Origin: Stegostoma tigrinum
Lineage: Eukaryota
Direction: 5' to 3'
NCBI RefSeq assembly: GCF_030684315.1
Contig: NC_081369.1
Span: 9,276,035-9,340,034 of the forward strand
DNA: 64,000 nucleotides
Shown: positions 11,761 through 35,050 of the stretch, piece after piece
Layout: every line of letters starts with the position of its first letter
Position numbering within the stretch: the first letter of the stretch is position 1
The notes under the pieces: generated by a model
Seen by the model: only the letters and a program-made list of their open reading frames with translations
The model's database searches: none
What the model was told of the DNA's origin: nothing
Position numbers and translations under genes: made by a program

Positions 11761-11769
11761 TGTTTGTCA

Positions 11770-12890: not shown

Positions 12891-14859
12891 TTAAGTTCTA
12901 CTGTACCCTCACCATTTAAATGCAAACTTCAGTGTCAGTGATATCTTCTTACCTGAACTGGAAATGAGAATTCAAATGAAAGTTAACATTGATAACGATA
13001 TTATCTGTCATCAGCGAATGTCAATTATTTTGAAATACAGTTTACGGGAATGGTATGATTGCAGAATATTAAAAAAACTTTCATAGCAATATCGATAGTT
13101 ATTTGTTTGATAAAGATGTCCCTATTGAAAGATGTTAAATTAAGTGTGCCCTCCTCTACAATCAGTTGCTAACTCATTCTGTTGTGGTTCAAACCCGAAA
13201 GTGAAGAAGGACGGGTGTCTGGGAAACGTAAACTGTAAAACAATGCAATATCTCAACTTATCCATCTTACAATGCCAACGGGACTGATCTCCCATACTAA
13301 CTCCAATTCTCTACCTATCTCCATATTTGTTGACACTTTATTCATTTTGTTGTCGTGTGTTTTGCAAGAAAGTTAAATATTTCTCGTTTATCTCGATGTA
13401 CCTGTGAGATATTGGCGATGAGGTGATTGGGCAGGACGGGGTTACAGTCAGAGATTTTTTACGGTCGCCGATGGAATTTAGAATAGAACGGCTGATACTC
13501 AAAATAAGCAGTGTCTCATTCGAACATCTACAACTAAGTTAAGGAGAAACTTACTTGGTTTGAATATCTACAAACTTGACTACCTCAGCCAGTTGCGTTT
13601 GCTCTATTCTTAAATAAATTAAACACTATGATAGAAAATTTCTGAACTTTCAGGAATTAAAGAATCTGTACTGCGTGGCAGTAACTGCAGCTGAGGTGGA
13701 AAACCAGGCATGTTTGCCTGCAGAGGGAGAAACTGTCTTCAGGGGACTTATTATCCGGTCTAGGTCTAAACGGTTACTGTGCTGTGTTTGCTCAGTGCAA
13801 AACCATTTCAGCCAATAATCAAGAGAAACCTCGGCGAACCTTTCTCTGGAGCTACAGAGATATCAGGCAGGCTAAGAACCCCCGAAGTTTATGCAATGAA
13901 GACGTTCAGCAATGAGATGGTTTTCCTTGGTCCGCAAACGATGCTCTCTTATATTTCAAGTAAAATGCAGAACAAAAACCTCCAAGTTGCGATAAGATGC
14001 AGCTTTGCAAAACCCTTGTTGCAATCCAGACTTGTCAATCATTTTTGACATTGCTTTCACGTTTCATGTGTATTTGCATTCGGGAATATGAGAACTAAGT
14101 AATTATTTCAAATATTACTACATTTTATTTATTCCAGGATATGCAAGACATAAACAAGAGCTGGCAGATTCTGAAACGGCAACGAATTTTGCTGTAATAG
14201 AAATAGTATAACATAGTCATTCCAGAATATTTCAATCTACTGGCTGAAATATCGGTCAGCTGACAGTAACTCTTTCAAACTATGGTGAGAAATGATGGTG
14301 CAAGTAATTATTTTTTAATATTTCATGGAAATTTTCCGGGTTACTTAAAGATGTGCCGAGGTACTAACTGATTGTTAATAAAACGATGCTTCCTCAGGTT
14401 TGAGGAAGCATATCTTAATATTGTAAATTTGCTGCTCATGTCAGTAATACTGCCCTCTTGCGTAAACGCTGGCAGTATTATATATTATCTATAGGCAGCA
14501 CAGTGCTCCAATGATTGCATTTGTGTACACATGTATAGGTTATCGTTTGTGCGCCTCATCTCAAATTCTTGTCAACTCTTGTTGCAAATTGGTGAAAACC
14601 CACAGCTGTATATTTGTATTCTGGCACGTGTAGGGATAATGTACTAAGGCCGTGCATTTTATTGCATTGGATTTGATCAGAAGCAAGAAGTTATCCCGCC
14701 ACAAATATGAAGGGGAAAAATACATTTATGCCAAGGTTGATTTATTGGCATAGATCACCAACATACGATTAACATTTATGCAAATATGAAGGCAATGGAT
14801 TCTTGTGGATTGACACTGTTCACAACTGTGGCGTTTTGCAACCCTGCTGATAACAACTT

Positions 14860-14974
14860 CGAAGCACTGCCTAAAGCTGTGAAAATGATAAATTGGGTAT
14901 ATTATTATGAAACATTGGATTTGCAAGAAAGTGCAAAAATTAAGAGAAATATTCGAGAATGTGCCCAATTGTAG
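14860..14974 (+). pseudogene. ITIM-like cytoplasmic exon remnant
   Basis: VYYYETLDLQESAKIKRNIRECAQL* aligns with the last exon of the intact gene (YSPLKFSVSAKK...HAQ). The acceptor was not identified. Confidence 0.4.
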
Positions 14975-15535
14975 ATAAACAAGGGAAAGTGGACTACTGA
15001 CACTGTCCACGTGGAAACAATATAAATGAGTAAAAAACGTATACGCGCAAACGTCATTCTATTGTTGTCGATATTTTCTGATCAATATGTTAATGAATGA
15101 TATTACACAACCTCTTTAGCAGGAGGGACTTGACGCCAAACATCTAGCCCAGTAGCAGCAATACCGACATTTCTCCACAGGAGATTTTGGCTTTATTTCT
15201 GTGTTGTGTCATGTCAACTCAGGTTTGTGAATAGTGGGTGATAACATTCAACAGAGATATAAGACATTACATTGATGTCATTACATGGAACGTTATCTAC
15301 AGTAAAACGAAAATGCATTCAAGTATTTGTTTTATGTTCCGCTAAAGGTTTTTATGAATGAAAACTTTCTCACAAAATCTACTGCTATAATTTTTATATG
15401 AACTGAGTCAATATATTTCTCTGATTGTGGTTTCGCAATACTATGGTATTATCTGGTTTGTACAAAGTTCTGAATTCAACAAACACAGAAGCTATGCTAC
15501 CTGCTAAAAATCAGCATGCTACCTACTGAAAATCA

Positions 15536-15897
15536 GGGTAGCTGATGGCCTGGTGGAATTATCATCAGACTGTTAATCTAGAGACCCAAACCATGTTCGG
15601 GGGACCTGGGTTCGAATTTCCCCACGTCAGATGGTGGAATTTGAACTCGATACGTACTTGGAGTTACGAATCTAATGGCTATGAGTACATTGTCGATGGT
15701 GAGTTGAAAAATCCTTCTGGTTCACTGATGCCCCTTAGGCAATGAAACTACCGTCCTTACCTGGTCTAGTGTACATGTAACTACAGCCCCACAGCAATGT
15801 GGCTGACTCTTAACTGCCCTCTGGACAATTAGGAATGCGTAATAGATGCTGACCTAGCCAGTGATTCTCGCATCGTGTGAATTAATAATAATAATAA
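15536..15897 (+). mobile_element. tRNA-derived SINE (abundant elasmobranch family)
   Basis: A-box-like tggcctggtgg, B-box ggttcgaatttcc, body ctggttcactgatgcccc...gactcttaactgccctctg and an (AAT)n tail. A related minus-strand head lies at ~4610-4750. Confidence 0.75.
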
Positions 15898-17559
15898 ATC
15901 CTGCTTTTTTCCCCTTGGTAAGTGATATTCTCAGGTCAGTGATTTGATTTCTGTTGTATTTTGCAGTCTTGTGACTGCCAGTCTTGTTTATATTACTGAT
16001 ATGAGATGGTTGAAGGTTCAGTCTATGGAACAATCCAAGAATCTCCTGTTTCCGATTCCCCCCCCCCCACCTTTTTGCTAATTTTAACCGTTTACCTAAC
16101 TCTTATGTATTTATGTGGAATCATAAAATATCAAACCTTTTCTGGGATCTGACACTTTTCAAAGAATCATCCAAATGATTCCTCAAACAGCGCAGTTTTC
16201 TAATTTTGAATTTATAACTAATTCTTCACGTATTCTGCTTGCAATAGCGATTACACTTCGGTATTCCTTTGCCCTTTAATTAAAGAATCAATTGAATCGA
16301 CTTAAGTTATGTGCCATTTTAAACTATTGTTAATTCAAAGTTATTATGATACAAAGTAAAACGAAATTTCTTTACTGGAATCTATGAAGCTATGATTTGA
16401 TTGGGCACAGCTCTCTGCCAAAGGTACCGTGTTTTATTTTGCCACAATAGATTTTCCTGTAGCCATCTATTGTTTCAATATCAAAGCGATACAAATCATC
16501 GTGACAATGCATGAACAGAAGTGGTGGTCTACGTTAAAGACCACTGGACCACTGGACATATTGACCACATCAATATGTGGGTGAAATGTTAGCTTGACAG
16601 AATGCTGGATATTTTTTAACTTGATTGACGTAATCATCCGTAAAACCAATATCGACAATGGTCAGATGCTAATCAAGCTTGCTAGTTGCTAACCAACCAA
16701 CACATTTAATGCTAAGTTTAATTTTGTTTATAGCAGGATACTGACAATATGTCTGGTGACGAATAGTAACAGCTTTGCCTCTGCATGTTTTGGTACTATA
16801 TCTACACACACTGTTCAGATCCTACAAATATGCCATTTCATACTTTTCTGTCTAAATTTTCAAAATGTTTTCTTGATATTGCCGAAAATGTGAGTGCTTC
16901 AGCTTATATGATATCGATTTCCATTTTAGACAATCCATTTCCTTGTTCAAAACATTTTGACTGCTTGTGGAGAATTGGTCTGTTTTCTTATCCCAATCCC
17001 AATATTCCTCTGTGCATAGCGTATTTTAAATTTAACCATGTTTGGGTTTGGTTCGTTATATAAATTGCAGCCTCTCTAATATTCGGCGCTGAGGACAAGT
17101 CAGCACATTTCCTTTACTCAACAAGAAATTTTAGAGTAAGACAAAGTACTGACATAAAGAGGGAACGTTATTGACAAGTATCGTATTGTTAACAACAAAC
17201 CTATCCTTAATAAATCTATTACAGGAAGATCAACCTCTTCTGAGGAGAAAAAAGATGAAAAATCAGAAGTCTTTTAACTTTAACACACTTTGTTCAAGTG
17301 ACAGTTTAATGAAAAAAAGTAAGAAATCACAAGTTATCCCATTTACTGTTCTGATTCAGTAATTAATCTACACACACCGAAGCTGCTCGAACTGACTGTC
17401 TTCCTTGAACCACTGCAATTGGCTGATTTCTCTTTACGATGATAATGACCTCGATTTCAAGAGAATCCTCTTTAGGAACCACTTCGCAGCGATAAAAATG
17501 ACTTTTGATGGTCACCAACTCTCACACATATTTGGGAAGAGTTTCAAAGAAGGCAAGTG

Positions 17560-18025
17560 TAATAATTGGCTATTGCATTGAACGTTTTAGGAGGCTTACA
17601 CTCAAATCTGAATATGAGTTTGCTACTTTAACATATTGAGGCAGTTCTTTGCAAGTTCGATTAACGAGAGGACACCTTATGAAAACATTAAGAAAGCGTT
17701 TCTTTGGGAACTTCACGGTACAACGCGAATGCGATGTTTGACTTCGCAAGAGAATTAGGACCAGAGGAGCATAATTTCAGGGTACAGGAATGGTCATTTA
17801 AGACACACATTAGATCTTTTTTTCATCCAGAGGGCAGTGAATCTCTGGAATTCTGTGCCACAGAGCATTACTGAGGCAAACTGAAGGCTGACACAGGCAG
17901 GTATCTGGACCAAGGGCTAAAGGAACATGGCAAAAGGAGAACTCGAGGATTAACAGGCCAACAATGATCTAATTGATTGGAATGATAGAGTCAATGGGTT
18001 GAATGGCTTAATTCGGCTGTTATGA
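17560..18025 (+). mobile_element. Decayed CR1 3' fragment
   Basis: aggaccagaggagcataat (TRGH-like), cagagggcagtgaatctctggaattc and tail gggttgaatggc. Confidence 0.65.
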
Positions 18026-18859
18026 TTTATAATTGATTAAGTTTTGAGCAGGAGGAATAGACAGACATGAGCATTTCATGAGAGAAAAAGCAAATACTGA
18101 CATTACATGATGTAATAAAAATACACTTTAGCTATAGAAATTGGAGAAAATTACAGTCATGAAGTCCATCAAGGAAATTTTAAAGTGTCTATTGATTCTC
18201 CTTATGGAATAGGAAGAAAAGAATGTGAAGGTATTGATATGTCAATTGACATATCATTGGGTGAAATGAAGTGGCAAATGCCACTTGGATATTGCCTCTG
18301 CAGAACAGATGGCAGATAGAATATTTGCAATTTTGTATCCCCATCGAAGAGGTTTATATGAATTGTGATGCAATGAGCAAGCTTGTATCGAGTGCATGCG
18401 TCTTAGTTCCTGAAGCATGCTGGCAAAAATATCGAAATCCAAAGACCGAAAATGTCAGGGATCAACATGAAACGACCTAGACACAATAGCCGACATGATG
18501 CTGTCACCATCTCAATATGGCATAAAAACAATTAATGTACAGCAGCATTGACTGGATGAGTATGGAAGCGATGTATCTCCAAATAAAACACGAGACAAAG
18601 CATGACCAGCAGGTGGTGCTAAGTGCTTTATATCTGGCCATTTGGAACAATCTAAGAAATATCATGAAGAACAACAACTGCAAAACCTCAGTGAAGAAAG
18701 GCCAGGGGAAAGAAAATCCAGTTTAATTGAAATGAATAAAAACAAATATCATTCCGAGGAATTACTGAGACAGGATAAGGAGAAAGACAACTTTCCTAGG
18801 TAAAGTCAAACAGAATGAAACCAGAAAATAGATCATCATCTTAAAGTCGCAGTTTAATT

Positions 18860-19162
18860 TTAGATTACCTACAGTGTGGAAACAGGCCCTTCGGCCCAAC
18901 AAGTCCACACCGCCCCTTGGAACATCCCACCCAGACTCATCCCCCTATAACTCACACACTCCTGAACACTATTAGCAGGGCGAATCCACCTAGCCTGTAC
19001 ATCTTTGGACTGTGGGAGGAAACCGGAGCACCCGTAGGAAGCCCACGCAGACACTAGGAGAATGTGCAAACTCCACACAGACGGTTACCCGAGGCTGGAA
19101 TCGAACCCGGGTCCCTGGTGCTGTGAGGCTGCAGTGCTCACCACTGAGCTACCTTGCCGCCC
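18860..19162 (-). mobile_element. HE1 SINE (shark V-SINE), near full length
   Basis: tRNA-like head (ggttcgattccagcc on the minus strand), V-domain gtgtggagtttgcacattctcc, and a 3' tail shared with the CR1/HER1 LINE ending in (TCTAA)n. Confidence 0.9.
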
Positions 19163-19206
19163 CAAAACGAGATTCCTCGAAGCTCAGCCCTAACCAGGGC
19201 AGTAAC

Positions 19207-19275
19207 TGGCTGCACCCGGAGTTGAACTCGGATCGCAGAGCTCAGAAGCCAGCGTGCTGACCACTATACCACAGC
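19207..19275 (-). tRNA. tRNA-Gln(CTG)-like pseudogene
   Basis: Minus strand agctgTGGTATAGTGGTCAGCACGCTGGCTT-CTG-AGCTCTGCGATCCGAGTTCAACTCCGGGTGCAGCCA aligns with vertebrate tRNA-Gln(CTG). A and B boxes are present, but the anticodon and T stems are mispaired. Confidence 0.6.
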
Positions 19276-19770
19276 TGCCAGATTCTGTCGTACAGGCAAG
19301 CACTTTACCATCGCTGATGTGTGTGACAGTCAGGCAAATTAATACAAAGATAACAAGATAGACGTGTTGAAAATATAAATAGAAATAACTGAACATGAGT
19401 TAGAAGCCAATTCAGGGACATCTTTGCAGAGTGGCCACGTTTGGTAACTCCATATTCAAGGGTTTTCAGTCTCCTGGAAGAATAGGCAAAATTGTAAAGG
19501 AGATGAAGTAGTTTTGTTCACGAAGGCGAGTATCAGTGTACAACCTGGAGTGGATTCAGTTCAAGTGAAAATGCAAAATAGCACGGCAAAGACTTCATGG
19601 CTGGGGCTTTTCTACATGCCACTGATTTGCTTCACTATTGGGCATTTTGCGCTGTAAGTACAGTAGACTAGATTCGGAGAAGCGGTGCTTCACTTGGAAG
19701 GTGTGTCAGAGACCTTGGATATTGAGGAGGAAGGAAGTAAATGGTCAGGCATTACACCTTCTGTGCACAA

Positions 19771-19861
19771 GATGAAGGGTCTAGGCCTGAAACGTCAGCT
19801 TTTGTGCTCCTGAGATGCTGCTTGGCCTGCTGTGTTCATCCAGCTCCACACTTTGTTATCT
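19771..19861 (+). repeat. Penelope-terminal repeat fragment with 5'-truncated hammerhead core
   Basis: gatgaagggtctaggcctgaaacgtcagcttttgtgctcctgagatgctgc; the CT of CTGATGA is missing. Confidence 0.75.
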
Positions 19862-19994
19862 GGCACGTAAGTAAGCGACTGGTTCTCGCATCCTGTTGAA
19901 CGGAGTGGAAATGGCAGTTTACAGACCTTTGGGTGTGGGTTCTGGTGATCACAATGTCGTCGCCTCTACATTGCAGAGATTTTTTAATGATTGA

Positions 19995-20092
19995 GATTAG
20001 ATTAGATTCCCTACAGTGTGGAAACAGGCCCTTTGGGCCAACAAGTCCACACTGCCGGTTGAAGCATCCCACCCAGACCCATCCCCCATAAC
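19995..20092 (-). mobile_element. HE1 SINE 3' fragment
   Basis: Highly similar to 18860-18950. Confidence 0.85.
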
Positions 20093-21179
20093 CTGAAGCG
20101 CAGACTGAGGAATTGATTTGAAGAACATGTGCGTTTTGTCTGCAAAAATGATCTTGAACTTGCTGTTGCCGATCACTTCAATACGCGAGTGTTCGCTTGC
20201 GAGTATCTTTGAATCGGGCTTGCTGCAGAGCTCCAGCGAAGTTATTGCAAGCTGGATGAGTAACATCTCATTTTCTGTCTTGGGACACTGGAGCCCTCAG
20301 AACTCAATATAGACTTCAATCCTTTAAAAGGATAAGTACCTTCTCCCCTCTCCTTACCCCAAACTGCAAACAACATGAGCTGCTATCATAACCAACCCAT
20401 TGTAAGCTACCAATGGTCCAGGTCATGAGGAAGAAGCTGATTTTGGAAGAAATGCTGACAAGAGTGTACAAAGTTATTAGAAGTTTTAGTAAAATTGAAA
20501 CAAAAGAATCACAATGCTCTGTAAAATAGTCTAACGCACCTGCTTGCATTGTGCCAGGAATTTCCACATTGCTTGATTACAATGAAGATTTTTTCCTGAG
20601 CAGGATATTTTGTGATCTAGGTAGTTTAAAATCAATATTGTCAGGGGCATTGATGCACACATGTAGAGCAGATGAGCCGCGAAGCTGGCCTGCCTGGCTT
20701 ACAGTTAAGGAAGCTATTGTGCAACACTAGATCGCTACCCCATGTCCTCCATTGCATCTACACAAATTAAGTGCACGTGTTTTTATGGTTGCATAATTTA
20801 GCAAATATTTCGAATTAATGATTCTCCAAAGGGAGAGTCACCCTTTATTTGGACGGAGTGCTTCGCACCACTTCTCATAAGGAAAACATGCAGGTTGCGC
20901 CCTCGAGATGCAACGTACCGCTGCATTTTGTCTTTTTTTTCTTTTTCACTATTACTTCATCAGAATTTGTTGCATTTCTCCGCTCAATTCAACGTGTTTT
21001 CTGCTCAGTTTTCAGTCTGTCACATCAAACTCAAATGACTCCATTCGAAGGCGCATGTCTGTTATAAATCCCTATGACAGTGGCTGGTAATATAATCACC
21101 ATTTCTCGATGGATCCTGCCCTTCGGCATTTCAAACTATTGATAATGCTCTGCAGCTTCTCCTCTATTATCCATTACAA

Positions 21180-21458
21180 TCAGGTTGCATTCATTGTCAG
21201 GCCGTGGAACAATATCAGAAAGTATAGTTCTGAGAGAAGTTTGTTCACCCAGACATTGTGAGCCTGTGGAATATTCTGTAACAGAAAGCAGTTGAATGTT
21301 TTCATGAAGGCGTTAGATCCCCTTTTCTGAGGGATAAAGAGGTCAAAGAGTGTGGGAAGGAAACAGGAACAGGGTATGAATTGGATCATCGGCCACGATC
21401 ATATTGGATGGAAGAGCAGGCTTGCAGAGCCAAATGGCCTTAACCCTGCTCCTATCTG
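21180..21458 (+). mobile_element. Decayed CR1 3' fragment
   Basis: acccagacattgtgagcctgtggaat...gccaaatggccttaaccctgctcctat tail. Confidence 0.65.
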
Positions 21459-22868
21459 TACCAACCTGGGTTTCGAAAAGGCAGAACATATCTAATTTAT
21501 ATGATTATGACTTTACTAAAGAATGGGCAATGTTGATGAGGACAATGCGAGTGTTTTGGTATCTGTGTAATTTCTAAACATTTCAAACACTGTTACAAAA
21601 TAGGGCAGATAACAGGCCCGTTATTCATGGAATCAAAGCAAAATGGTCGTAGTCGCAGCAATGTCAGATACCAGAGAGAATCGCAAGCATACAATGTCAA
21701 ATTAAAGGAACACTTTCAAATGGAGTTCTGCAATTGGGAGGACCTGAGACTATCTGCGCACTGCTTGGTGAAATTGGCAATGTTCAGAGAGCAAATGATT
21801 AGTGTGATATCCAATTTCAACGGCGTTACTATAATGATAATAACAGTGTACCAAGGCAAGGATATTGTGGCGCAGAATTTGCAAGAATGATAAAAAGAAT
21901 TGAAATTCTTGGCGTTTTGTGGAACGATTTAAATTCCAACTTCAAGCTGCACTCAATTGATTATTTTAGAAGTGCATTCATTGTCATTAAAAAGAAACGC
22001 GGCAATCGACGTGCGCTGCCAAAATCTGCGAAAAGCAATCAGCTAAAAATATCAGGGAGTCTCTGTTTTTATGATGATCGGAGCATAAATACTAGAAAGA
22101 ACGCCAATAATTCCACAACTCTACTTTCATAAAATGAACTCAATGGATTGCTTAACATTTGTTCGACCTTGCACAAAGTTTAAAGTTGCATTGGAAATCC
22201 GGCATCCCTGCCGTTACAGCGTGCCAACGTGTCTGTCCTGGTTTTTGTGTTGCTTTACAGAACTGTATCTTCCACCCAGAAAATTTTAGCACTGAGGAAA
22301 AATTCCAACTCACTGAGAGATTACTTCCCAAAAATTTGCCTGATTCCATGGATGGAAATGAGTGGTGAAGCCCCGTCTATTGCCGTTCAAGACGAAAAAG
22401 TTGAGAATTCAAACCACGAGAGTTCTGAAGGGAATGCATAATGGCCAACTGAGCCCATTGACAGAAACTCCAAGCATCAAAGCCTCCGATTATCGAAAAC
22501 GTGAAAACGATGCTACGTGATCAACATCTGTGGTCAAGACCTGGATGTCCTCATTAAAACAGTGATGGAGCCAGATCTACCTGCGTTTAGAAAGAATATG
22601 GGCATTAGCAGCGTTAGTTAACTCTGCATTTGAAAATCAAATGTCTTTTGCTCTTTTGCATTACTTGATAAACACGATTTCAGACGTGACATACACACAG
22701 AAACTGCAAAATAGCATTGACCATACGAGACTCAAATTACCGACCGCACTCACAGGATGTTAAACGTCATTGCCACGTATCTGATACAGTGAGCAAACTG
22801 GAAACCCGTCTTAGCAGTTACTAAAGCGCGTAGCTGCACAGCGTGGTTAGAACAAACCATCATTAATA

Positions 22869-22923
22869 ATGCCAGCGAGGATGATTTTTTTCTGCCTGAC
22901 ACTACTCGAGTTTATTCTTGCTG
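22869..22923 (+). CDS. Exon 1: signal peptide MPARMIFFCLTLLEFILA
   Basis: ATG at 22869, hydrophobic 18-mer, phase-1 donor G|gtactt, compatible with the V-exon acceptor. Confidence 0.8.
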
Positions 22924-25900
22924 GTACTTTGGTTTTTGATTCACAGAACTGCTTTAATTCATTAAAGACTTTCGATGCAGCTCCTCCTTCCATTAAATAA
23001 TCTTAATTCATCTATCTTGTTAAGAACTTAACTCTCCTATCTTTATGCCGAATACGACAGTTAACTATGTTTTATTTTGTTTCTGACAGCTGCGGACCAC
23101 ACTTGTTTTAGGGTTACTCAAATACCTAAAAGAGCAGCTGCGAACAGACGGGAAGACATTACCTTCTACTGTACATTCTCCATTTGTCAGCAAAGTTCAA
23201 AGCCAAATGTAATTTGGTGGAAGCAGGTTGGGAATGAACGTGTTCAGATTGAAGCCAGTGGTAGACAACAATTTGGATTTGAAAATGAAGCAACAGCGTT
23301 CCTTAGCTTGCTGCGCGTTGATATCCAAGATTCTGGACATTATCACTGCACGGTGAATTACCAAGGAATCGGTCAAAGAAGCGGAACCCCGTCCCAGCTA
23401 TTTGTGCGTGGTAAGTGAGAGCGACACTGTCTGAAATAATTTGAAATAACAAGATATTTCCTGATCGCTGATTTCACCAATATTCGCGGTTAAATCGTGT
23501 CCAGTTATCATTTATACAGGAACCTACCCTTGATATTTCAGTTCCGTTGAAAAAAAGTAAAATTACACGATCAATATCACCGGTAGAAAACTGAAGCTTT
23601 TATAAATATTAACAATTTACGCTGTAATTCTAAAGACAGCCTATACACTATGTGCTTTTTGCCGATATACAAAACTTCCGATGTACATAGGCAACAAGAA
23701 ACCGCTTTGTCAGGCTATTCGTCCACAATTCTTAGTCCCTGGTATGTTATTGAAGTCGTGTGACTGCCCGACAATTATTTTTTCTGAGATTGAAGATTCT
23801 AGAAATTTATTCTCACATTAATTTCACGTCATAATTTGAAAATCAGCATGAACTTATTTCATGAGTGAAGGAATCGATGCAAAAGAAACACAGTTTGACA
23901 GATACAAGTAGGTTGAATCACTGACCTAGAATAAATAAAACAACGCAGAGAATCTGTAGCAATAACAAATTTGCTGGAAAAGCTCAGCAGGTCTGGCAGC
24001 ATCTGTGGAGGACAAAACAGAGTTAACGTTTCGGGTCCGGCGACCCTTCCTCAGAACTTAAAGTTCAACTGATTCAATGTGTTTTGTCAATTGAAATGCC
24101 TTGTTTTTGAAATCCGACTGATACAGTGATCTTGGGGTAATCGGCAATCTGCAACTTCACCGCCGTTATGCACTTGAGCTTAAAAAAAACACCAGGGCAG
24201 ACGAGCACAATTTGCTTTGTTCCTTTCTTGTGCGCAAGCTCAATTTAATTAATTTATTCAAATATGCGACATAAGCATTGCGAAGCATTTTGTAGTTTTG
24301 TTCTGCCGAGGAAGGCCAAGTATTGGATTTGATAATTCAAGTAAAAATGGATAAAAGCCGCTGCCTGGAGAGCTATTTGTTTCATTAACTGAATGCTTGT
24401 GCATAAAATTAAGTTGAGAAGAAACTGCACTTCTGAGCATTGTATTTCTAGGAAAGCATAGCGTCTGTAAATCAGCCTCAAATTTAACAATTTCTGATTT
24501 GTTCCAGTAACTTGGCTTTGTTCAATCTCTGCTTGCAGTTGCTCCAGTCCCACTGAAAATTACGCCCAAGTTTCACGAAGAAAATTCACTTGTGTCTTTG
24601 ACCCTTCTGTGTGAAACAGCTGCATTTTATCCGGAGGATTTCACCCTCGCCTGGTATAAAAACGGCACGAAAACTACAGTCGGTATAAATACGAGCAAGG
24701 TGCAGAACAGTGAGGGACTGTATGAAGTATCCAGTTCTTTGGTTGATCCTCATCCTCCCTCAAGTAATCTCAAGTATACCTGTGAAATATCTCACATCTC
24801 CCTCAAGACGCCTGCTGTTGTAACCCACAGTATTTCCACATTTGGCGGATTCCAAAAAGGCGAGTTAGTTGCTGTCAGTTTTGTTACGAAATGCATCGTA
24901 GAATAGTGCAACGTGTGGGCCTAATCCGCAGTGGTTTCATGGAGATGTATTTAAATGTATTATACTAAGTTGACATCTCTGTTGTAAGAGCATCAAAACT
25001 TATTTGGTATTCTATTTCTTTGACTTTTGAAATAGTAATTATGTTCAGAATTGAGCTGATCTATCCATTTGTTTCTTCCTATCATTTTGTCCACGTTCAC
25101 CTTCTTTGCCCAAGCTATGCCTACCTCTTTGTAGGTTACGTGGCACAATCCCTCTTCTGTACCTACACTGGTCCTAAACATCACTTTTTCCTCTGTTACA
25201 TTGATGACTGCATTGCCATCTCCTTGTGCTCCCATGAGGAGCTCGAGCAGTTCATCCACTTCACCCACAGACTCCCACAGCTACCTGGAATACACCTCCT
25301 CCCACCCACCTTCCTGCAAAAATGCCATTCCCTCCTCCCAATTCCTTTGTCTCTGCCACATCTGCTCCGAGGATGAGGCATTCCACTCCCGTACATCTCT
25401 GATGTCCTCGTTTTTCAAGGATCGCAACTTCCCTGCTCAATGGTTGAGAATGCCCTCGACGGTGTCTCCCGCATTTCCCACAACTCATCCCTCACACATC
25501 CTCCCTGCAAAAACAACCAAAACAGAATCCCCCTCATCCTCATGTACCACCTCACCAACCTCCTGATCCAATGCATCATCTTCCGACACTTCCGCCATCT
25601 GCAATCCGACCCCACCCTTAAAGACGTTTTTCCCACCCTCATCTGCTTTTTGGAGGGACCACTCTCTCCATGAATCCCTCGTCCGCTCCACACTCCCCTC
25701 CAGCGCTACCACACCGACACTTTTCCCTGCAACCACAGGAAGTGCTACACCTGCCCCTACACCTCCCCCTTCACCCTCATCTCAGGTCCCAAGAAGACTA
25801 TCCACATCAAGCAGATGTTCACCTGCACATCTGCTAATGTGGTATACTGATCCACTGTTCCTGTTGTTGCCTCATCTACATCGGGGAAACCACGCGGAGG

Positions 25901-28900
25901 CTTGGGGACCACTTTGCAGAACACCTATTCTCTGTTCGCACTAAACAACTGCACCTCCCAGTTGCGAATCTTTTCAACTTCCACTCCCGTTCCGCAGGTG
26001 ACATGTCCATCCTGGGCCTCCTGCAGTGCCGCAACGATGCTACCTGAAGGTTGCAGGAACAGCGTCCTATATTTCACTTGGGAACCCTGCAGCCCAATGG
26101 TATCAATGTGGACTTCACAGGCTTCAAAATCTCCCTCCCCCACTGCATCCCCAAACCAGTCACTTTCTGGATTACCCCAATCCAGAAATTGAAGTGGACA
26201 GTTGAGAAAATGCTTGTGATATCATTCCTCTAAATTTAAGAAAGCATAATTAGTAAGTAAGAAAGCTCGAGAACAACAGTATTTTGATTCATGGGGAATT
26301 GACTTATCTCATATTCCTACCTTTCCGAAACAGTCCTTTGTGTTCCATAAATTGACAATCTATTCCAGAGATTGATTCAGAATTTGCCATGTTGGATCAA
26401 GAATTCACTTCGATATTTAACAGAAATAATCTTTGGCAGTTCAGCTTTTTCATTGTCCTTGAATAGCGCTGTGCAGTTGAAAGTATCATCACATTTTAAG
26501 CAAAGAACTAAAGTGACAATATTTTTAATTTAATGATCACATGCAAATAATGTCTTCTTTATCCTGCAGACAGTATCAACAATTCACTGGTCATCTGGCC
26601 TTCAGTTCGTTATGTGATTTTCTCGGCGCTTGTTGTAATTCTGTTCGTGTTTGGGACTACAAAGTACTTGAGGATATCAGAAGTAAGGTCTACTATCAAA
26701 GCTTGCTTTTCGCACAGGGCCTGGGTTCATTTGCCATTTCTGGAAAACAAGCAGGATACTTATTAGGGATAATTCGAATTGGTTTAAGACTGAAAAATGC
26801 AATCATTTTGTTCTTTTTTCCCCCGCAAACGTGGATTGCTCCAAAGCCACTTAAAAACACAAGAAGGTTCTTGGAAACATGAGTGAACCATTCAGCCCCT
26901 TTGGGCCTGTTCTGCCATTCAAAGAGATCATGGTTGATGAATGGCTTAACTCTATATCCTTGTCCCTAAACACTTTGCTTAACAAAAATAAATCGATCCC
27001 AGATTTAAAATTAAAATTAACTTCTATTTGTTGAAAAGTCTTGCAAACATGTGCATAGAAGAGCTTCCTCACATCTTTCTTGAATGATCTTGTTGCAAGT
27101 TTTAGAGTATGACCACCAGTTCTAGAATCCACAACCAGCAGAAGTAGTATATGTTACTGACAAAGTGTGAAGAGGGTCTTCGGTCCGCCTCCTCCTCTTT
27201 CCCTATTTATTTCAGAACCCTCACCCCATCCCCCTCTCTGATGAAGGGTCTAGGCCCGAGACATCAGCTTTTGTGCTCCTGAGATGCTGCTTGGCCTGCT
27301 GTGCTCATCCAGCTTCACACTTTGTTATTTGGATTCTCCAGCATCTGCAGTTCCCATTATCACTGATACTATATTACTGACACTCTCTTTTGCTGTTAAT
27401 GTCGTAAAGCCTTCAATTAGATCATCTCTCAACCTTCTAAATTAGAGAGAAAATAGTCTTAGTTTGTATAATCCCTCCATGTAATTAAATCCCTAAAGTC
27501 CACAATTATCATTCTGGTAATTGTACATCATACTCCTTCCAAGGTCAATGCACCTTTCCTGTGGTATGCTGCTCAGAACCGTTCACAGCTCACCAAAATG
27601 TTTTCAAATGTAAACAATGCTCACGTGTGTTAATTTCCAAAGGCACATTTCAGTTTTCAACATGAGAAATGAAATTTATCACAATAAATATGAAGTAGGT
27701 AATTCGATGCTTCTGTCAAGTAATGATTGCTCCTTGAAAGAATGGAGGATTAATAGCAGATTCTGATGTTGCAACCGTCTGATCTCTGCGAGCAACATAA
27801 TCAAATGTATTCTGCCTCAACGGAACATTCACATCCTTTCTCTAATACTTTGATTCAGAAAAATGCGCTCATTTTCTGCATGGAAACTGAGTCAATATTT
27901 TCATCACTCAATGCAATTATATTTCATTGGTTTGCAGGTAAAGAAGAATGCACAAGGCAATCAGACTGCCATGTCAATGTGGTAAGTTCATATCATCATC
28001 ATGCTTGGAGTTTGAAATGTTTGGATCAATGGCAATAATGGAAGAAATATACATTAATAATGACAGAACATTTTATATCTATTTATTGAAAGACTATTCA
28101 TCTGGTATGTGTGTGTTTCAGAGCCAGGTTTGAAGCGCAATTTGTACAACTTGTATTACTGATGAAGGTTGGCAAGTGGATCTTCTTTAAAAAAAAACCG
28201 TAATCATATCTTTGAGAATGTTGCAAGATTGAGTCACGTTTTAGGGTTGAGAACAAATTTACTGTCTAAACCCATTGCATCTAACACTTAACATTATGTT
28301 TCAGCATGAATATGAGGAAGTTTGAATTGTTGCATTGAACACTGAGATTAACATTGTCTTCATGCAGATATATCTATAATATGGATTCTGCAAGGGATGT
28401 CGAGTCTTGGTTAAATATGCTTAGTCCTTGATGTAGAAAATCTTCGAGACAATGAAAAGGACACTTATTGAAGTGTTGTTCTTGTCCTCACAGGAAGCCA
28501 TGGCGGAGGTTTCCTGCAATAGACTTAGGCAAAAACAGGAGAACTCCTAGACATACGTTTGAAATAGAGAAAAACATGCCTATTGAGGTAGGGCGGAGTG
28601 GGAGAACACAAAATCAGGATAAAATTGTGATTCAAGATAATAAAATGTGAGGCTGGATGAACACAGCAGGCCAAGCAGCATCTCAGGAGCACAAAAGCTA
28701 ATAAAATGTGAGGCTGGATGAACACAGCAGGCCAAGCAGCATCTCAGGAGCACAAAAGCTACTTGGCCTGCTGTGTTCATCCAGCCTCACATTTTATTAT
28801 CTTGGATTCTCCAGCATCTGCAGTTCCCATTATCTCTAAAATTGTGATTCAGCCTGACAATGAAGGCATTTGCTTCTATGGACATTAGCCAAATGTCATT

Positions 28901-29148
28901 TTGAAGCCGATTTTTGTGTCCTTCTGATTAGTGCTTTGCAGAAAGTTTATAAAAAAGGCCAATTAATAACATTTCCAAATAATATCTTTACAGCTCTCCA
29001 TGTTGCTATCGGCAGTAAGATGACATACAGTCCTCTAAAGTTCTCTGTTTCTGCGAAGAAGGCACAGAGATTGCTTGAGCTGCAGACTGAAAAACAAAAC
29101 AAAGTAACAGAAGATATCCATGCACAAGCAAGAAATAACAAGGCTTAA
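22869..29148 (+). CDS. Non-rearranging Ig-superfamily membrane receptor gene: leader + V(J-like) + C1 + TM + cytoplasmic exons (antigen-receptor-like, SIRP/NKp30-like architecture)
   Basis: Exons 22869-22923, 23090-23410, 24539-24859 and 26570-26682 all join in phase 1 into one open frame. Candidate tail exons are 27938-27981, 28494-28587 and 28994/29016-29148. AATAAA at 29241 and 29257. Confidence 0.85.
23090..23410 (+). CDS. Exon 2: IgV domain with germline-encoded G strand
   Basis: Acceptor ttttattttgtttctgacag, donor G|gtaagt, 321 nt. Motifs RVTQ.P, ITFYC, VIWWKQ, LSLLRV, DSGHYHC and SGTPSQLFV. Confidence 0.95.
23960..24058 (-). repeat. Penelope-derived short repeat with minimal hammerhead ribozyme core
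   Basis: Minus strand gtt-CTGAGGA-a-GGGTC-gccg-GACCC-GAAA-CGTT-aac at 24057-24022. Confidence 0.75.
24539..24859 (+). CDS. Exon 3: C1-set Ig domain
   Basis: Acceptor tctctgcttgcag; LTLLCETAAFYPEDFTLAWYKNG ... GLYEVSSSL ... YTCEISHISL shows C1 hallmarks (C-x-x-x-x-FYP, W, Y-x-C-x-x-x-H). 321 nt; donor AAG|gcgagt. Confidence 0.95.
25108..26160 (+). mobile_element. Penelope-like retroelement (Neptune-type), truncated; RT + Cys-knuckle + GIY-YIG; intronic
   Basis: PSYAYLFVGYV..FFLCYIDDCI (RT), PTDSHSYLEYTSSHP..CKNAIP (thumb), FPCNHRKCYTCPY knuckle, and FTCTSANVVY..IYIGET (GIY-YIG). An internal deletion lies near 25263. Confidence 0.9.
26570..26682 (+). CDS. Exon 4: stalk + transmembrane helix with Arg
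   Basis: Acceptor tcttctttatcctgcag; phase-1 reading DSINNSLVIWPSVRYVIFSALVVILFVFGTTKYLRISE; donor GAA|gtaagg. Read-through would stop at 26764-26766. Confidence 0.85.
26860..27600 (-). mobile_element. Decayed CR1 3' fragment interrupted by a Penelope-terminal insertion (~27160-27368)
   Basis: Minus ORF DSRTGGHTLKL..FKKDVRK; the insertion is flanked by tat(g/a)ttactgaca repeats. Confidence 0.75.
27938..27981 (+). CDS. Candidate short cytoplasmic exon (44 nt)
   Basis: Acceptor atttcattggtttgcag and strong donor G|gtaagt. Open as VKKNAQGNQTAMSM (phase 0) or GKEECTRQSDCHVNV (phase 1). Confidence 0.6.
28494..28587 (+). CDS. Candidate cytoplasmic exon (94 nt), reading frame uncertain
   Basis: Acceptor gttgttcttgtcctcacag, donor GAG|gtaggg. 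Open after phase-2 entry (WKPWRRFP...PIE); three stops in the phase-0 frame. Confidence 0.45.
28620..28851. repeat. Penelope-terminal insertion: perfect 61-bp tandem duplication + inverted copy, 15-bp TSD
   Basis: taaaattgtgattca at 28620-28634 and 28837-28851; duplicated unit 28638-28759; inverted arm from 28762. Confidence 0.85.
28994..29148 (+). CDS. Candidate terminal cytoplasmic exon with ITIM-like MTYSPL
   Basis: Acceptors end at 28993 (atctttacag) and 29015 (ctatcggcag). Frame ..KMTYSPLKFSVSAKK..DIHAQARNNKA*, followed by two AATAAA. Confidence 0.6.
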
Positions 29149-29240
29149 ATATTTCAAGGCAAAAGATTATTCTTGGACTTGGACTGATCACAATCGTTGG
29201 CACTTAGAGCTTCAGGCCTGCACAGTCTCACCTCTGTGCG

Positions 29241-29262
29241 AATAAAGCATTACCGCAATAAA
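29241..29262 (+). terminator. Tandem polyadenylation signals
   Basis: AATAAA at 29241-29246 and 29257-29262, about 100 nt after the stop at 29148. Confidence 0.55.
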
Positions 29263-29398
29263 GCAGATAGACATAGCGAGTACCTATCCTTTTAATGGCC
29301 AATTAATCCCTATTATTGGTTTTTAAGAACACCAACAACCTGCTTTGAAAGTATGTTTGAAAGACACTTTGCTTGAAGCAGAGTAAATGAGAATTGCA

Positions 29399-29702
29399 GG
29401 AGAATCCAAGATAACAAAGCATGAAGCTGGATGAACACAGCAGGCCCAGCAGCATCTCAGGAGCACAAAAGCTGGCATTTTGGGCCTAGACCCTTCATCA
29501 GAGAGGGGGATGGGGAGAGAGTTAGGGTTAGAGTTAAACCCTAACCCTATCGCCTGTCCCCGTCCCCCTCTCTGAAGAAGGGTCTAGGCCTGAAACGTCA
29601 GCTTTTGTGCTCCTAAGATGCTGCTGGGCCTGCTGTGTTCATCCAGCTTCACACTTTGTTATCTTGGATTCTCCAGCATCTGCAGTTCTCATTATCTCTG
29701 AT
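29399..29702. repeat. Penelope-terminal inverted repeat (~117-bp arms) with telomere-repeat apex and hammerhead core
   Basis: Arms 29399-29515 and 29557-29674; centre gTTAGGGTTAGAGttaaaCCCTAACCCTA. Confidence 0.85.
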
Positions 29703-32700
29703 CACAATTTTAACCGCACTGTGAAGCCTCTTCCAGGGATGCCTAACCTGAAGAAGTTACCTTCCTCTCTCTGGACCAACCTTAGGGAATCTCTCTCCAA
29801 CTGCAACTCTCTTGTCCACCTATCTTCTCCTCTATCCATCTTCAGAAGTTGCTTGAAGCAATTGGCTGCCTCTCAGAGCTTCTTGCTTGCTCTTATTGCA
29901 TTTGTCTAATCAGAATCTAGTTGCTTGCTGTCTGCATCCATGCCTTGCCTTGATTTGTACTGTGTTTGCAGAGCCACACAGCTACCTTGCAAGTGAATAC
30001 TTCATAGTCAATGAGGTACGCAACCTGTAATACGCAATGTGTGACATGAGTGTCGCAGCTGCGACTTGTGTCAGCAGTTTATGCACCAAACACACATCAT
30101 GTGTAGCCAACAGGCAGCCATGTCTCAAAGTCAAAGGGAAAGAGACGGGTGTGACATCCTTGGAGGTACCTATCAATTACAGTGACCCAGGAGAGTAATG
30201 AACAGCTGTCTCCCATCCCAGTCCAACCATCTGCGGAAGGTCAGGCGTTTGGCCAGGGTGGTGTTGGTCAGGGTCTGCAATCCGGGGACTGGGTTATGGT
30301 CAGTCCAGTGCCTCCATAGCACTTAGGACAGTGGGAAGTGCAAAAGACAGAAGGGAAGGCAGTGATATGAGAGGAGGACTTAATCCCCAGTCAGGATCAC
30401 ACTGGCATTTAGGGGTGAGAGGTGGGGAGTGAGAGACGGGTCTATGACCACTCCTGGCAAGGTCACCTCATATGGCAATGGTGTGGTGATGATCGTAATT
30501 GGCACAAGCAGACTCGAGAAGATGGGCTGCTTGTGGACCTCTGCAGGTGTAAAGCCTATGGGGTTCATGAGATGGGCAAGCAGTGAGAGAATGCAGACGT
30601 TCAGAGGCTCACAAACGTTCAAATGGAATCTAGAAGCCATTGGCCTAGATTGATCATTGACAGCTTCCATCCTAGTGGAATTTTAATGTGTGCAATGTGA
30701 AGCCAAATGGCAGAAAATTATACTTGGATGAAGTTCGTAAGTTTATTGAACTGTGAAGGAAGGGGCTGCAGGACTCACCAGTTTGAGACTTTTTAATTGG
30801 AAACTATATTACTTGCAGACCAATGAATGTTACAAGGCAGAGATTTGCAAACTCCTTGATCCTGGGCAATAGGCATGCACTGATCATACGTGTGAACTGT
30901 ATGTCACTGTCTTGGATATGAATGATTAGCTTATTTATGCCAGCACCTTTGCACTCAGGTGCGAGGGTGTTAATATCGTAACATTTCACCTCGGGAGGCG
31001 ACGGTATCAGCAGAACCCTGTGCTTAATTCTCAACTCTTCATTTTGTCTCAATAGTTTCCCTTTGTCTTTCTGCCCCTCCGACAGCTTGTCTGTGCTGTC
31101 CTTGGTAACATAATTGGGTGGAGCGTACCTGCTTGGCAATGGATTCCATTGACAATGACGATTTGGGTCAGGCAATCCTGAGAGCATTTATATCTGATAT
31201 GAATACCATTTCCATTGTATTGTTTGTACCTTGAGTAACTCAGTAGCACTGTAACAATCATATAAATTAGAAAAATTGTTCATGGCATTTCAGTTACACA
31301 TCTAAAAGGCACATATCGTTGAAACGTCAACATTGATGTTAGTCATTTTTGAATCTTACGTCCCTGCTCATAGTTTTAATGAATAGTGAACTTCAATTTC
31401 GTGAAGCATTTGCATGTCCCAAAAGGCTTGAAACCATCTGATGGTATTTAACACATCCACTCACTTGCCACTTCGTGATGTGTTGCAACAATTTCGTCAT
31501 AGCAAATTTTTATTCGCAACAATTAGATCATTCTGTCTCTGATATTCTTCACTGAATTACCATATCTATGTAGGTTTGTAAGTTTCTTCTGTAGGTCTTT
31601 ATGTGACCGAGTACGCTGCCTCATTCATGATTGGCAGAGTCTATGTGAACTCTCGAATAACGATAACATAATTAGCAAAAACATCTGGAAAATAAATAAT
31701 TGTCAAAGCTCAGTGGCAATAAAAATACAGTTGGTTGAATGCTGTCATAAGATAATTGATGTTTCCTTACATATATTCATAACATTTTCCAACTTCTTAT
31801 TTGACTCTCTGAGATCCATTCAAGCTCATTCTCATACAACTAAGATCACTAATTTTGGCCTTTATCGTACTGAATATCTTCTCCAGCGTCAAGTTTCCTC
31901 TGTACCAGCTGAACCATCATCTGTGATTTAATTCACCTGTGCTCAACGATTCCAGTACACACATAGCTGAACTCCCATATTTTATCTTCTGTAAACTGCA
32001 GCTAAACCTTTGTTTTTAATGTTTTAACAAATATGGGAGGTATGCTGCTAGATATTTTGGCTCCCAGTCAAGTGTAATATTAATTTTACAATTCCTATCA
32101 TCGTTAAAAACTGCCATTTAATTGCCTCTCCTCATCTCTCTAATTGCTCTACCACTGGCAGCTATCCAAAAATAGTCTCAGCATCTAAGTTATGGAAACA
32201 TCCTTACATCTCTCCACTCTTATCATTGCGTTAATCCGTAAATGCTTTTTAAAAGGTACCCATTTCAACGAGTGTTTGGCAGTGTAACCTTACACACCCT
32301 GATTTGTTCAATCAATGCTTCGTTTTGTGTTCATTTGATCTGTTTTGGGAGGCTTAAACATAGGTTTGTCTTCAGATATGCTTTCTTTCCACAGCTCTGA
32401 AAGGTCAACCGTGTGAAACCTGAATGGCTCACAAAATAAACAACCTCTTCAAAGAGAGGCACGTGTGCTTACCGCTAAACTACTGCTGACCATGTATTCT
32501 CCTTATGGGTAACAGAAGCCCATTCTTAAGGTAATTTGGTCAACCAATTGAATTTGCGACAGCACAAGTTCGCTGTAAAGTGTGGACATTTAATTTACTG
32601 ACACCATTATTTTTCGATTATGAAAATTTATTCTTATTTTGTCAATATAACCTCTGGAGTTAAAGAGTCAACCATTATTAAAGTTATGAACTTTAGTGTA

Positions 32701-33972
32701 TATCCGCACTGTAAACAGTGAAAATACAGCAAAGAAAAAACACTTGTACTCCCAACCATTACTTCTGACTAATCTACCTCAACTGTTCGAATAATCAATT
32801 TAGACACTGGTTTATTGCTTCAACAAAAGACTTCCCGATCTATTAACAACATAATAACCACAATTGAGCGAAACCGAGCAACAAAATAATCCAATCTGTC
32901 TGTTTTACTAATTCAAAACCCTTTGTTTTTCGCACCATTCATACAAAGGGCAAACAGACAAACAAGCACAGCTAAGGGACAAATACAATCTACAAGCAAA
33001 ACTAGCGAGATTACTTCAGTGATTTCCGTGATGTGTTGTTCCCTGAGCATAGGTGATGTTTTCTTATTTATTTTCTGAACGCGCTGATCAAGGTCAGCTT
33101 TCAGTTTAATCAGATAAAGGCAGTAAAACTTTATACCTGAGTTCAGAGGAAGAGTCACTCGCTCCCGAATATTAAGTCTGATTTCTCTCCACAGTTGCTG
33201 CCACACCTGCCAAGCTTTTCGCCAATTTCTCCTATTGTCTCATAATTTAAACTTAGTTTTCTATCCTGCAAGCGTTCACGGACTGCTCATTTGAGGTGAG
33301 GCAGCGAAGTTTTTTAAAAAAATGTCTTCATTCTGAAACATCAACGGTAAGATTCCTTTTCGCAGAAAAATGAACAGAAGCCCAGAATCCAATTGAAACT
33401 CTGTCCATTCCTTGACTGGCTGACAGGCTTTTGCACGAGGCCCCAGACTCCATTCAATATCTAACATGTTTTGAAAACAGGGTCTTTACCAGGCCTATTG
33501 GAACCAGCAGTGATCGAGTTGATAGTCACCTTCGGCGGACTGTTTAAGCATAATGCTCCTCCCCGCTCATAAAAAAACTGCAACTCTAAAGTAAAAACAA
33601 CACAAATGGTCAGCTGATCCCAAGTCTTTCTAATCTGTCGAGTGAAAGACTGTTTATCAGTTAATGAATTAGGTAAAGTAATGCAAGCTATCTTTAATTT
33701 TGGCTATTTATTGAGAAGTCTCACAGACAATCATATACTGAAGGAATTATTGTAACTTTGTTGCATACAGCAACCGAAATAACACTCCTCAAATAAGCCA
33801 TTTATACCTCACAGTGTAGTTCTCCAGACATTTGCTACTGAAGAATTCTAGAGTTAAAATTTTACAGCGTTCTATTTTTCAAAGTGAATGATTGATCTCA
33901 GGTATGATTCCAATCAATGGCGTCTGGCCCTTGGTGGGTCCAGTTTCGATTCTGATATACAGTAGTTACTCA

Positions 33973-34232
33973 ATAGACAATAGGTGCTGGAGTAGGTCAT
34001 TCGACCCTTCGAGCCAGCACCACCATTCATTATGATCATGGCTGATCATCCACTATCAGTATCCTGTTCCTGCCTTATCCCCATAACCCTTGATTCCACT
34101 ATCTTTAAGAGCTCTATCCATCACTTTCTTGAAAGTATCCAGAGACTTGGCCTCCACTGCCTTCTGGGGCAGAGCACTCCACATATCCACCACTCTCTGG
34201 GTGAAGAAGTTTTTCCTCAACTCTTGTTCTAA
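33973..34232 (-). mobile_element. CR1 3' fragment
   Basis: Minus ORF ELRKNFFTQRVVDMWSALPQKAVEAKSLDTFKK..GIKGYG. Confidence 0.9.
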
Positions 34233-35050
34233 ATAGCTTTCACTGAAGATGGAAAACTTAGAAACGTTTTCGACTTTAAATACCGAAAGTGTAAAGTGTG
34301 GGGAAAAAGCCAAAACGTTAGGTCTGTGATAATTTGAGAGGCAGCAGAGATTAAACAGTAAAAAGAGAGTTGGCCTTGCAAGGCCAGTCGGTCACATTAA
34401 AGTGGTATAGTTGGAAGTATAAGAACATGAGCAACTGCAGTCTTATCAGGAAAACCTGAGTGGAATATCGGGAAAATGGGTCAGTTGAAAAGATTGTGTA
34501 GAAGGGCTGTTAATGGGAGACCAATGAATATTTACTTTACAAACCAAAAGAAAGGTGTGGACGACCACAACAGCAACAACAAGCTTGCCATGTGAAAGGA
34601 AATGAATTGGGAGTGCGATTTGGAGATTATCTTTTGCTCCGTGTTTCCCATTTTTATGAGGGAACATTGCCAAGCTGCTGTGCAGCTCTGTAAGGTGGCG
34701 GCAATAGACATCAAGGCGTCATTTACTTTTGCTTTCCACTGAGTGACAGTAATGGCCACTGTGATACCTTTAAATTGGCCCGTGTTTTAATCTCTGACCT
34801 CTCCCCTCTGTTGTGTCACTTACTTGCCGCTAAACCTGTCCTCCAATCAGTCAGGGCCAACTTCAGGGGACATTGTGCCTAAAGATGCCTTCCTTCTCAG
34901 CATGCCGTATGGACCCAGAAAGTGTTCCGATGCAAATGCAAGTGAAAATCCTCAATGTATAATATCTGTTCAACATTTGTCATTTTCTTATTTCCTATGA
35001 TAACATTTTAAACTGTGTGATAGCACTGCGTTATTAAATAACTTCACAGA

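Follow-up and report, generated by a model that had tools for sequence, protein, structure and literature searches.

How did a complete immunoglobulin (Ig) variable (V) domain come to be encoded in a single shark exon, with its joining (J)-like G strand in place and no signal for recombination, and what kind of gene carries it? The exon lies in a 64,000-nucleotide (nt) stretch of the zebra shark (Stegostoma tigrinum) genome (NC_081369.1, here contig C19, positions 9,276,035 to 9,340,034 of the forward strand), which we call the window. An initial annotation of this DNA had proposed a primordial-type chain in which the joined V and J (VJ) precede a constant Ig domain of the C1 set (C1), with a transmembrane segment and signalling tail of its own. 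We propose instead, with a probability of roughly two in three, that the window gene carries the complete non-rearranging V of a leader-V-C1-transmembrane gene in a family of paired receptors, and that it is a predicted activating member likely derived by unequal crossover. Papers are cited by PMC number.

Positions 23090-23410 are exactly one V exon of 321 nt (phase 1/1), flanked by the acceptor ctgacag and the donor gtaagt. The translation ends in YHCTVNYQGIGQRSGTPSQLFVR and continues to the donor, so that a single exon spans strands A to G, and the absence of a recombination signal sequence (RSS) noted in the initial annotation was confirmed. Under one rule for both sets (heptamer start no more than 75 nt after the second cysteine, no more than 3 mismatches in total), an RSS followed 0 of 34 family V exons versus 11 of 13 rearranging Ig and T-cell receptor (TCR) V genes of the same genome. 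Consensus scans of the whole window gave three matches with a 12-nt spacer, none of them at the V exon (1.0 expected; three or more in 7 of 100 shuffles), and no match with a 23-nt spacer. The J-like motif of the window V is degenerate (G-T-P). G-x-G stands at the J-like position in 21 of the 34 family exons, a count that omits L112, whose match is off-position (22 before the omission), and F/W-G-x-G, as in real J segments, in none. From the second cysteine to the exon end there are 21 residues in 28 exons, 20 in 4, and 19 in 2. The two canonical cysteines are 59 residues apart in the window V and 54 to 60 in the family (23/23 rows listed), versus 65 to 73 in Ig and TCR (13/13 rows listed). 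The extra cysteines Cys24 and Cys51 could make a second disulfide. The single-exon, non-rearranging VJ-type V domain is thus genuine, yet nothing unusual within its class. Such domains are a known kind, the joined-VJ genes listed in PMC11599192 being CD79, NITR, SIRP, CD8, NKp30, and PRARP.

The window gene is laid out as leader, V, C1, transmembrane segment, and tail (Table 1), with exons set by alignment to paralogs and splicing predicted. The spliced frame is open over 325 amino acids (aa). All acceptors are canonical, as are all donors except that of C1, which is GC in the window gene and GT in paralogs L056 and L061. The C1 and transmembrane exons uphold the annotated VJ-C1 chain with its own membrane anchor, but the signalling tail did not hold up. 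Relative to paralogs, 1 nt is deleted in the transmembrane exon, 8 nt over the tyrosine of the first immunoreceptor tyrosine-based inhibitory motif (ITIM), and 1 nt in the last exon. The family tyrosine motifs are gone from the tail in all five splice orders tried, and the ITIM tails belong to paralogs, which have VQYSAV or AQYDAV at the site of the second cytoplasmic exon. Within the transmembrane segment, the Arg is close to the outer end.

Table 1. Predicted exons and other features of the window
Feature	Position	Strand	Remarks
Part common with inhibitory gene B	2869..24867	+	99.69% over 22,001 nt; upstream end is as far as compared
Leader exon MPARMIFFCLTLLEFILA	22869..22923	+	phase-1 donor; agrees with NCBI model P0001
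V exon	23090..23410	+	Cys-Cys spacing 59; C'' strand not predicted; J-like end G-T-P; without RSS
Part common with Arg-transmembrane gene A	24063..41375	+	98.8% and 99.3% in two blocks; downstream end is as far as the compared DNA reached
C1-set exon	24539..24859	+	Pfam C1-set E 1.1e-10; predicted GC donor AG/gcgagt
Transmembrane exon with Arg LVIWPSVRYVIFSALVVILFVFG	26570..26682	+	113 nt; paralogs one base longer
First cytoplasmic exon	27938..27981	+	44 nt; predicted reading in shifted frame
Second cytoplasmic exon	28494..28587	+	8-nt deletion takes out ITIM tyrosine
Last coding exon	28994..29023	+	to predicted stop; relic MTYSPL out of frame
Broken paralog V exon	49578..49865	+	stop, two deletions, GT donor lost

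The origin of this combination is suggested by the neighbouring genes. Six near-identical V exons lie about 78 kb apart, in the order gene A (L051), four hybrids, and gene B (L055). Gene B, the last of the array, shares its leader and V with the window gene. Its transmembrane segment is neutral, and its predicted frame of 363 aa is intact and contains VQYSAV, VTYTTL, and TEYAAL. Gene A, the first, has a different V (92% identical, ending in G-T-G) and the same Arg-bearing transmembrane segment and tail. The window gene is 88.9% identical to gene A over leader and V, versus the far closer match from 24063 on (Table 1). Diagnostic sites are B-type through V and its intron and A-type after C1, both in the window copy and in L052 to L054, which places the inferred crossover zone at 24063-24867, in the V-C1 intron and C1 region. 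The array order fits unequal crossover and re-expansion. On these comparisons the window gene is likely a recent crossover hybrid of the FCGR2C kind, present in four copies in the assembly.

Several further observations concern the array. A unit of about 78 kb is repeated at 98 to 99.9% identity across C19:9.22-9.61 Mb, and the window lies inside one unit. An insertion at 23940-24060 is a B-type marker that gene A does not have. Three adjacent base changes at 23389-23391, which turn the second Gly of the J motif into Pro, are shared by gene B and every hybrid. Three DNA runs of one sample yielded contigs that carry the V exon, with no differences listed. Their depth is about 10 to 20 over the window gene versus about 3 to 8 over its single neighbour L056, the two having been measured at different likeness settings and not amounting to a copy number; the ratio is a weak hint of about three copies. 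The depth in this independent sample hints at fewer copies than stand in the assembly, which could reflect copy-number variation or over-assembly.

The window gene belongs to a large family. At least 35 V matches were found in the zebra shark genome, all on C19, as were at least 52 of 80 C1 matches, at 2.1-3.0, 9.18-10.26, and 13.68 Mb; the window gene is one of dozens in two clusters on the contig. A profile search returned 47 proteins resembling the family and one additional weak, unrelated fish match. Those of the 47 with a species given come from sharks, rays, and Callorhinchus. Their automatic names are inconsistent (SIRP-like, tapasin-related-like, NCR3LG1-like, Ig lambda-like). A transmembrane segment is present in 35 of the 47 models; 21 of these have an ITIM or immunoreceptor tyrosine-based switch motif (ITSM) pattern, 10 a transmembrane Arg (read by eye), and 2 both. 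Genes of the ITIM type and the Arg type adjoin on C19. Near-identical ectodomains occur, within a cluster, with an ITIM tail in one gene and a charged transmembrane segment without ITIM in another, which is the arrangement of paired receptors. The genome also holds two genes for adaptors with a transmembrane Asp, which we take to be CD3zeta-like and FcRgamma-like. No description of the family was found in the literature searched, which included few subscription papers; supplementary tables were outside its scope and could list the loci. The family is likely a large chondrichthyan group of paired innate receptors, apparently unnamed.

We propose that a misaligned crossover within the inferred zone placed the upstream region, leader, and V of gene B before the transmembrane segment and tail of gene A. 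The hybrid is likely activating through FcRgamma or CD3zeta, because the indels removed the ITIMs and the transmembrane segment carries an Arg, which would pair with the transmembrane Asp of the adaptor. Coupling of this Arg-Asp kind is established for NKp30 and NKp46 (PMC6514059). Because the hybrid and gene B share their V, and the hybrid would engage an adaptor, the two would be expected to bind the same ligand and to signal in opposite ways, the latter as described for the homogenised ectodomains of Siglec-5 and Siglec-14 (PMC4042635). Such a hybrid could act as a counter to pathogens that exploit gene B. An origin by crossover is likewise described for FCGR2C, inside 82-kb repeats (PMC6786274).

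Some of the evidence weighs against an activating crossover hybrid. Splicing, the GC donor, and the tail exons are predictions from alignment to paralogs. Sites of A- and B-type are mixed within V and C1 (e.g., 23181, 23426, 24628, and 24666), so that conversion has played a part too, and to speak of one crossover is to simplify. No contig joining a B-type V to an A-type transmembrane exon was found among the independent-run contigs listed. An Arg at the outer end of the segment may fail to recruit an adaptor, and the three tail-exon indels could equally signal decay. Furthermore, NCBI model P0001 (Stegostoma tigrinum, 247 aa) has no transmembrane segment and reads through C1 to a stop, a form that would be secreted. 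The gene could then encode a secreted decoy made of V and C1, or be a copy in decay, with the GC donor skipped, C1 read through, or the frameshifted tail non-functional. We consider this rather unlikely: the same GC donor in gene B is followed by exons that give an intact ITIM frame, the remaining splice sites are all canonical, the frame stays open after splicing, and the sister Arg-type gene L057 lost the same ITIM tyrosine through an overlapping deletion. Other candidates along the gene were set aside. An exon candidate at 28369 was dropped since a stop arises at its junction, and one at 31585 was superfluous once the exons at 28494 and 28994 were aligned to the paralog ITIM exons. TKYLRI, beside the transmembrane segment, fits TxYxxI, but it is not kept in L051 or L052 and was taken as chance. 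The introns contain pieces of short and long interspersed elements, high-copy and of very high contig depth, at 23940-24060, 25130-26170, 27150-27370, 28640-28840, and 29390-29680.

Structure prediction and separate phylogenies of V and C1 were used to place the gene among Ig-domain families. AlphaFold predicted two confident Ig domains (predicted local distance difference test [pLDDT] 85.6). For V alone, at 91.5, it gave strands A, A', B, C, C', D, E, and F and a G strand that is split; C'' was absent. Structural neighbours of the whole model were tied between B7-H6 (Z 16.7, root mean square deviation 3.4, 193 residues aligned) and VNAR (16.3, 1.8, 101), with CD79b at Z 15.2. Foldseek matched the predicted V to VNAR and TCR alpha V (TM 0.80 to 0.85, 20 to 27% identity). 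A profile search of 1.84 billion representatives was dominated by long multi-Ig proteins; in the PDB, multi-domain chains dominated such searches, and neither resource named a nearest family. The outgroups for the trees were taken from this genome, with labels based on RSS, motifs, and likeness to known proteins rather than on database names; SIRP and PRARP sequences were absent from both trees. The careful C1 tree covered 28 of 64 rows, the full 64 being in a quick tree only; in the careful tree the family formed one side of a 96/98 branch, weakly beside B7H6-like genes on C20 (83/78). In the careful V tree (33 rows, about 100 columns, with weak deep forks), a 96/85 branch parted the family from Ig, TCR, VNAR, UrIg, NKp30-like, and CD28H-like V domains; on the family side stood BTN- and B7H6-like V domains as well, on a long branch. 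Both trees lean weakly to B7H6-like genes.

The layout of V and C1 would also suit a germline-joined Ig light chain (IgL) or TCR, and Foldseek ranked TCR and Fab chains first (17 to 24% identity). Germline-joined IgL genes do exist in this genome (L114, L115, and L117), and they have FGxGT. The window gene nested in no IgL clade in either tree and in no TCR clade of the C1 tree. Approximately unbiased (AU) tests rejected its C1 being forced with IgL (P = 3.9e-7) or TCR (P = 2.9e-5) and its V with IgL (P = 2.7e-5; whole family, P = 0.0044), the V tests covering IgL. Together with the missing F/W-G-x-G and the fixed end of 19 to 21 residues in 34/34 exons, these tests refute a joined IgL or TCR at the gene level, as the initial annotation had anticipated. 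The C-terminal interchain Cys is absent, the contig differs from those of the IgL and TCR loci, and the family has transmembrane segments and ITIM tails. We regard such an identity as extremely improbable.

Whether the family as a whole descends from the precursor of antigen receptors is a separate matter, and here the chromosomal setting is relevant. C19 carries Not1 (4.75 Mb), NDRG (10.46-10.49 Mb), membrane-type matrix metalloproteinase (MT-MMP; 11.37 Mb), an ATBF1/ZFHX3 match (43.56 Mb), copines, a CEBP pair, and IRF. Paralogs of these marker genes lie on C5 and C23, and a fourth NDRG is on the unplaced C255. Major histocompatibility complex (MHC)-like genes are on C44, and Ig heavy chain (IgH)- and TCR alpha/delta-like genes on C55. 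From the human positions of the marker genes, we take C19 to be the 16q/19q12 chromosome. In humans, NDRG2 and MMP14 flank TCR alpha/delta, and SIRP is on chromosome 20. MMP14, MMP15, MMP16, and MMP24 are listed in the paralogous regions 14q11-12, 16q13-21, 8q21, and 20q11 (PMC1867822). On this gene content, C19 looks like a sister, from the two rounds of whole-genome duplication (2R), of the human 14q11 and 20 regions, which is suggestive of the family being related through 2R, as a paralog, to SIRP and to the antigen-receptor complex. RHD had no match on C19, C23, C5, or C55, and a search for the opioid-precursor family, made without a working control, gave no match. Two IRF9-like genes, one strongly diverged, lie inside the IgH/TCR contig at C55:7.17 and 7.22 Mb. 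TCR gamma-like V and C exons are found at C5:3.0-3.13 Mb, on a contig with 8q-type paralogs and not on the Hox-bearing C2.

Two further explanations draw on this setting. The window gene could be a shark SIRP ortholog, an activating member like SIRP-beta that binds a CD47-like self marker. The top two Atlas matches of P0007, an inhibitory relative, are SIRP-alpha clusters (0.97, a lead only), many NCBI models of the family are named SIRP-like, and SIRP is the third PDB match of C1. We nonetheless find orthology distinctly unlikely. The gene has one C1 and not two, its V alone has no SIRP match at E 0.001, and its Arg is at the outer end of the transmembrane segment, where SIRP-beta has a mid-segment Lys. 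A syntaphilin-family marker lies on C5 and C23 but not on C19, a single marker for the human 20p13 neighbourhood; on C23, no C1 match was found among the matches listed. A search for the CD47 family, made without a working control, gave no match. 2R paralogy with SIRP fits better than orthology. The family could alternatively be a surviving relative of the pre-RAG VJ-C1 precursor, on a chromosome that 2R made a sister of the one with the TCR alpha/delta-IgH complex, having acquired its paired-receptor tails later. The combination of V with a true C1 is rare, G-x-G is common in the family, and VNAR and TCR alpha V are similar in structure to the predicted V. C5 and C23 hold paralogs of the C19 markers, the two IRFs on C55 fall together with those of C19 and C2 (82/86), and the MMP genes lie in paralogous human regions. 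In the C1 tests, forcing the entire family together with these receptors was not rejected (AU P = 0.287 with IgL, 0.191 with kappa, and 0.195 with TCR). We hold this account to be doubtful. The V tree parts the family from Ig, TCR, VNAR, UrIg, and NKp30, the AU test rejects family V with IgL, and both trees lean toward B7H6-like genes. C55 has a member in only one of the five marker families tested, and the published candidates UrIg and UrIg2 are linked to the MHC and the antigen-receptor complex, UrIg2 being proposed as a candidate RAG target (PMC12227049). The primordial character ascribed to the window gene is therefore unproven, given also its short Cys-Cys spacing, and antigen-receptor relic status is the lower-odds reading.

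A broader scenario can be formulated, though we consider it no less doubtful. A pre-RAG VJ-C1 gene may have lain on the ancestor of human 8q, 14q11, 16q, and 20, and not, or not only, in the proto-MHC. After 2R, one copy would have been split by RAG to give TCR alpha/delta-IgH, one would have become SIRP, and the 16q copy would be the chondrichthyan family, beside NDRG4- and MMP15-like genes in a setting that recalls human TCR alpha/delta with NDRG2 and MMP14 on its two sides. On this view the family would supply the KIR/SIRP-like self-sensing system that is missing in sharks, and would go on making activating hybrids by crossover. The 16q-like position provides an alternative or an addition to the proto-MHC model of antigen-receptor origin, one that can be tested.

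Downstream in the window lies a second, broken V exon. The initial annotation had cited a paralog with GNGIGIQLNVS, closer to the J motif. These words are present at 49832-49864, but the exon that contains them is not intact: compared with the intact relative L062, deletions of 8 and 7 nt put the region of the second cysteine out of frame and bring in a stop. No C1 exon for it was found within the 64-kb window. The region 48990-56850 is a decayed relative of L062/L063, 65 to 73% identical in blocks, and includes a broken transmembrane-like exon at about 54220-54334. Two other repeat units were examined, and both contain the broken V.

With several dozen V-C1 receptors, some likely braking and some likely activating, the family is a concrete candidate for the innate sensing of self and non-self in sharks, rays, and chimaera. 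The locus appears to record the birth of an activating receptor, since an apparently intact hybrid has a V that is letter for letter that of its inhibitory neighbour. The pair formed by the hybrid and gene B makes the idea of counterbalance against pathogens testable in the oldest jawed lineage.

The window gene can be compared with several known systems. NKp30 (NCR3) shares the single-exon VJ domain and a transmembrane Arg that couples to CD3zeta or FcRgamma (PMC6514059). It has no C1, whereas the shark family has one, is on C19 and not C44, and forms a separate clade. Three single-exon VJ domains that we take to be NKp30-like on sequence likeness (L138, L139, and L141) are on the MHC contig at C44:11.3 and 20.2-20.3 Mb and form one clade (98 in the Shimodaira-Hasegawa-like approximate likelihood ratio test). 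UrIg, UrIg2, and PRARP, the last named among non-rearranging VJ genes (PMC10751288 and PMC11599192), also have an unsplit VJ exon followed by one or more C1 exons. UrIgs differ in having several C1 domains, linkage to the MHC or antigen-receptor complex, and a V that groups with antigen receptors; the window gene has one C1 and is on C19, and a UrIg-like C44 locus falls elsewhere in both trees. Two UrIg-like V-C1-C1 genes (L081 and L082, C15:76.96-76.98 Mb) lie off the MHC and antigen-receptor contigs, and their V domains end in WCACG/WCGCA. B7-H6 (NCR3LG1) and other B7 proteins share the V-C1 ectodomain, B7-H6 being a best whole-model match and a weak tree neighbour for both domains; the B7-H6-like genes, however, are on C20 without a G-x-G end, and the shark family has receptor-type ITIM or Arg-transmembrane ends. 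At C20:34.36-34.39 Mb (L080 and L176 to L178), a B7H6-like V is followed by many C1-like exons, which suggests a long multi-C1 gene.

Other unsplit VJ genes were observed in the genome. A second small V-C1 family (L074, L075, and L183, C14:31.99-32.14 Mb) has a V end EIPPP...GKG, the CD28H-like motif of PMC11599192, followed by a true C1 exon, and falls outside the C19 family in both trees. Two further clusters without RSS lie at C11:96-97 Mb (L142 to L144), where the VJ type groups with IgL sigma-like V (95/91), and at C60:7.8-8.5 Mb (L145 and L146), where it ends in FGNGS.

Two further close likenesses are to SIRP and FCGR2C. SIRP has a germline VJ-type V, C1-set domains, clustered genes, and ITIM/ITSM members beside charged-transmembrane members, and the shark family shows all of these with one C1 only. 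It differs in that single C1 rather than two, a shorter V, an outer transmembrane Arg rather than Lys, and a cluster on a 16q-like contig. FCGR2C has an ITAM of its own (immunoreceptor tyrosine-based activation motif), whereas the shark gene lacks any tail motif and would depend on an adaptor, and the domains of the two are unrelated. The hybrid activating receptors, in which we group FCGR2C with Siglec-14 and the activating KIR and Ly49 receptors, offer a parallel, FCGR2C combining an unequal-crossover origin, an inhibitory ectodomain with an activating tail, a repeat of roughly 80 kb, and copy-number variation (PMC6786274). The window gene is best read as one that would work like SIRP-beta or FCGR2C, without being established as a SIRP.

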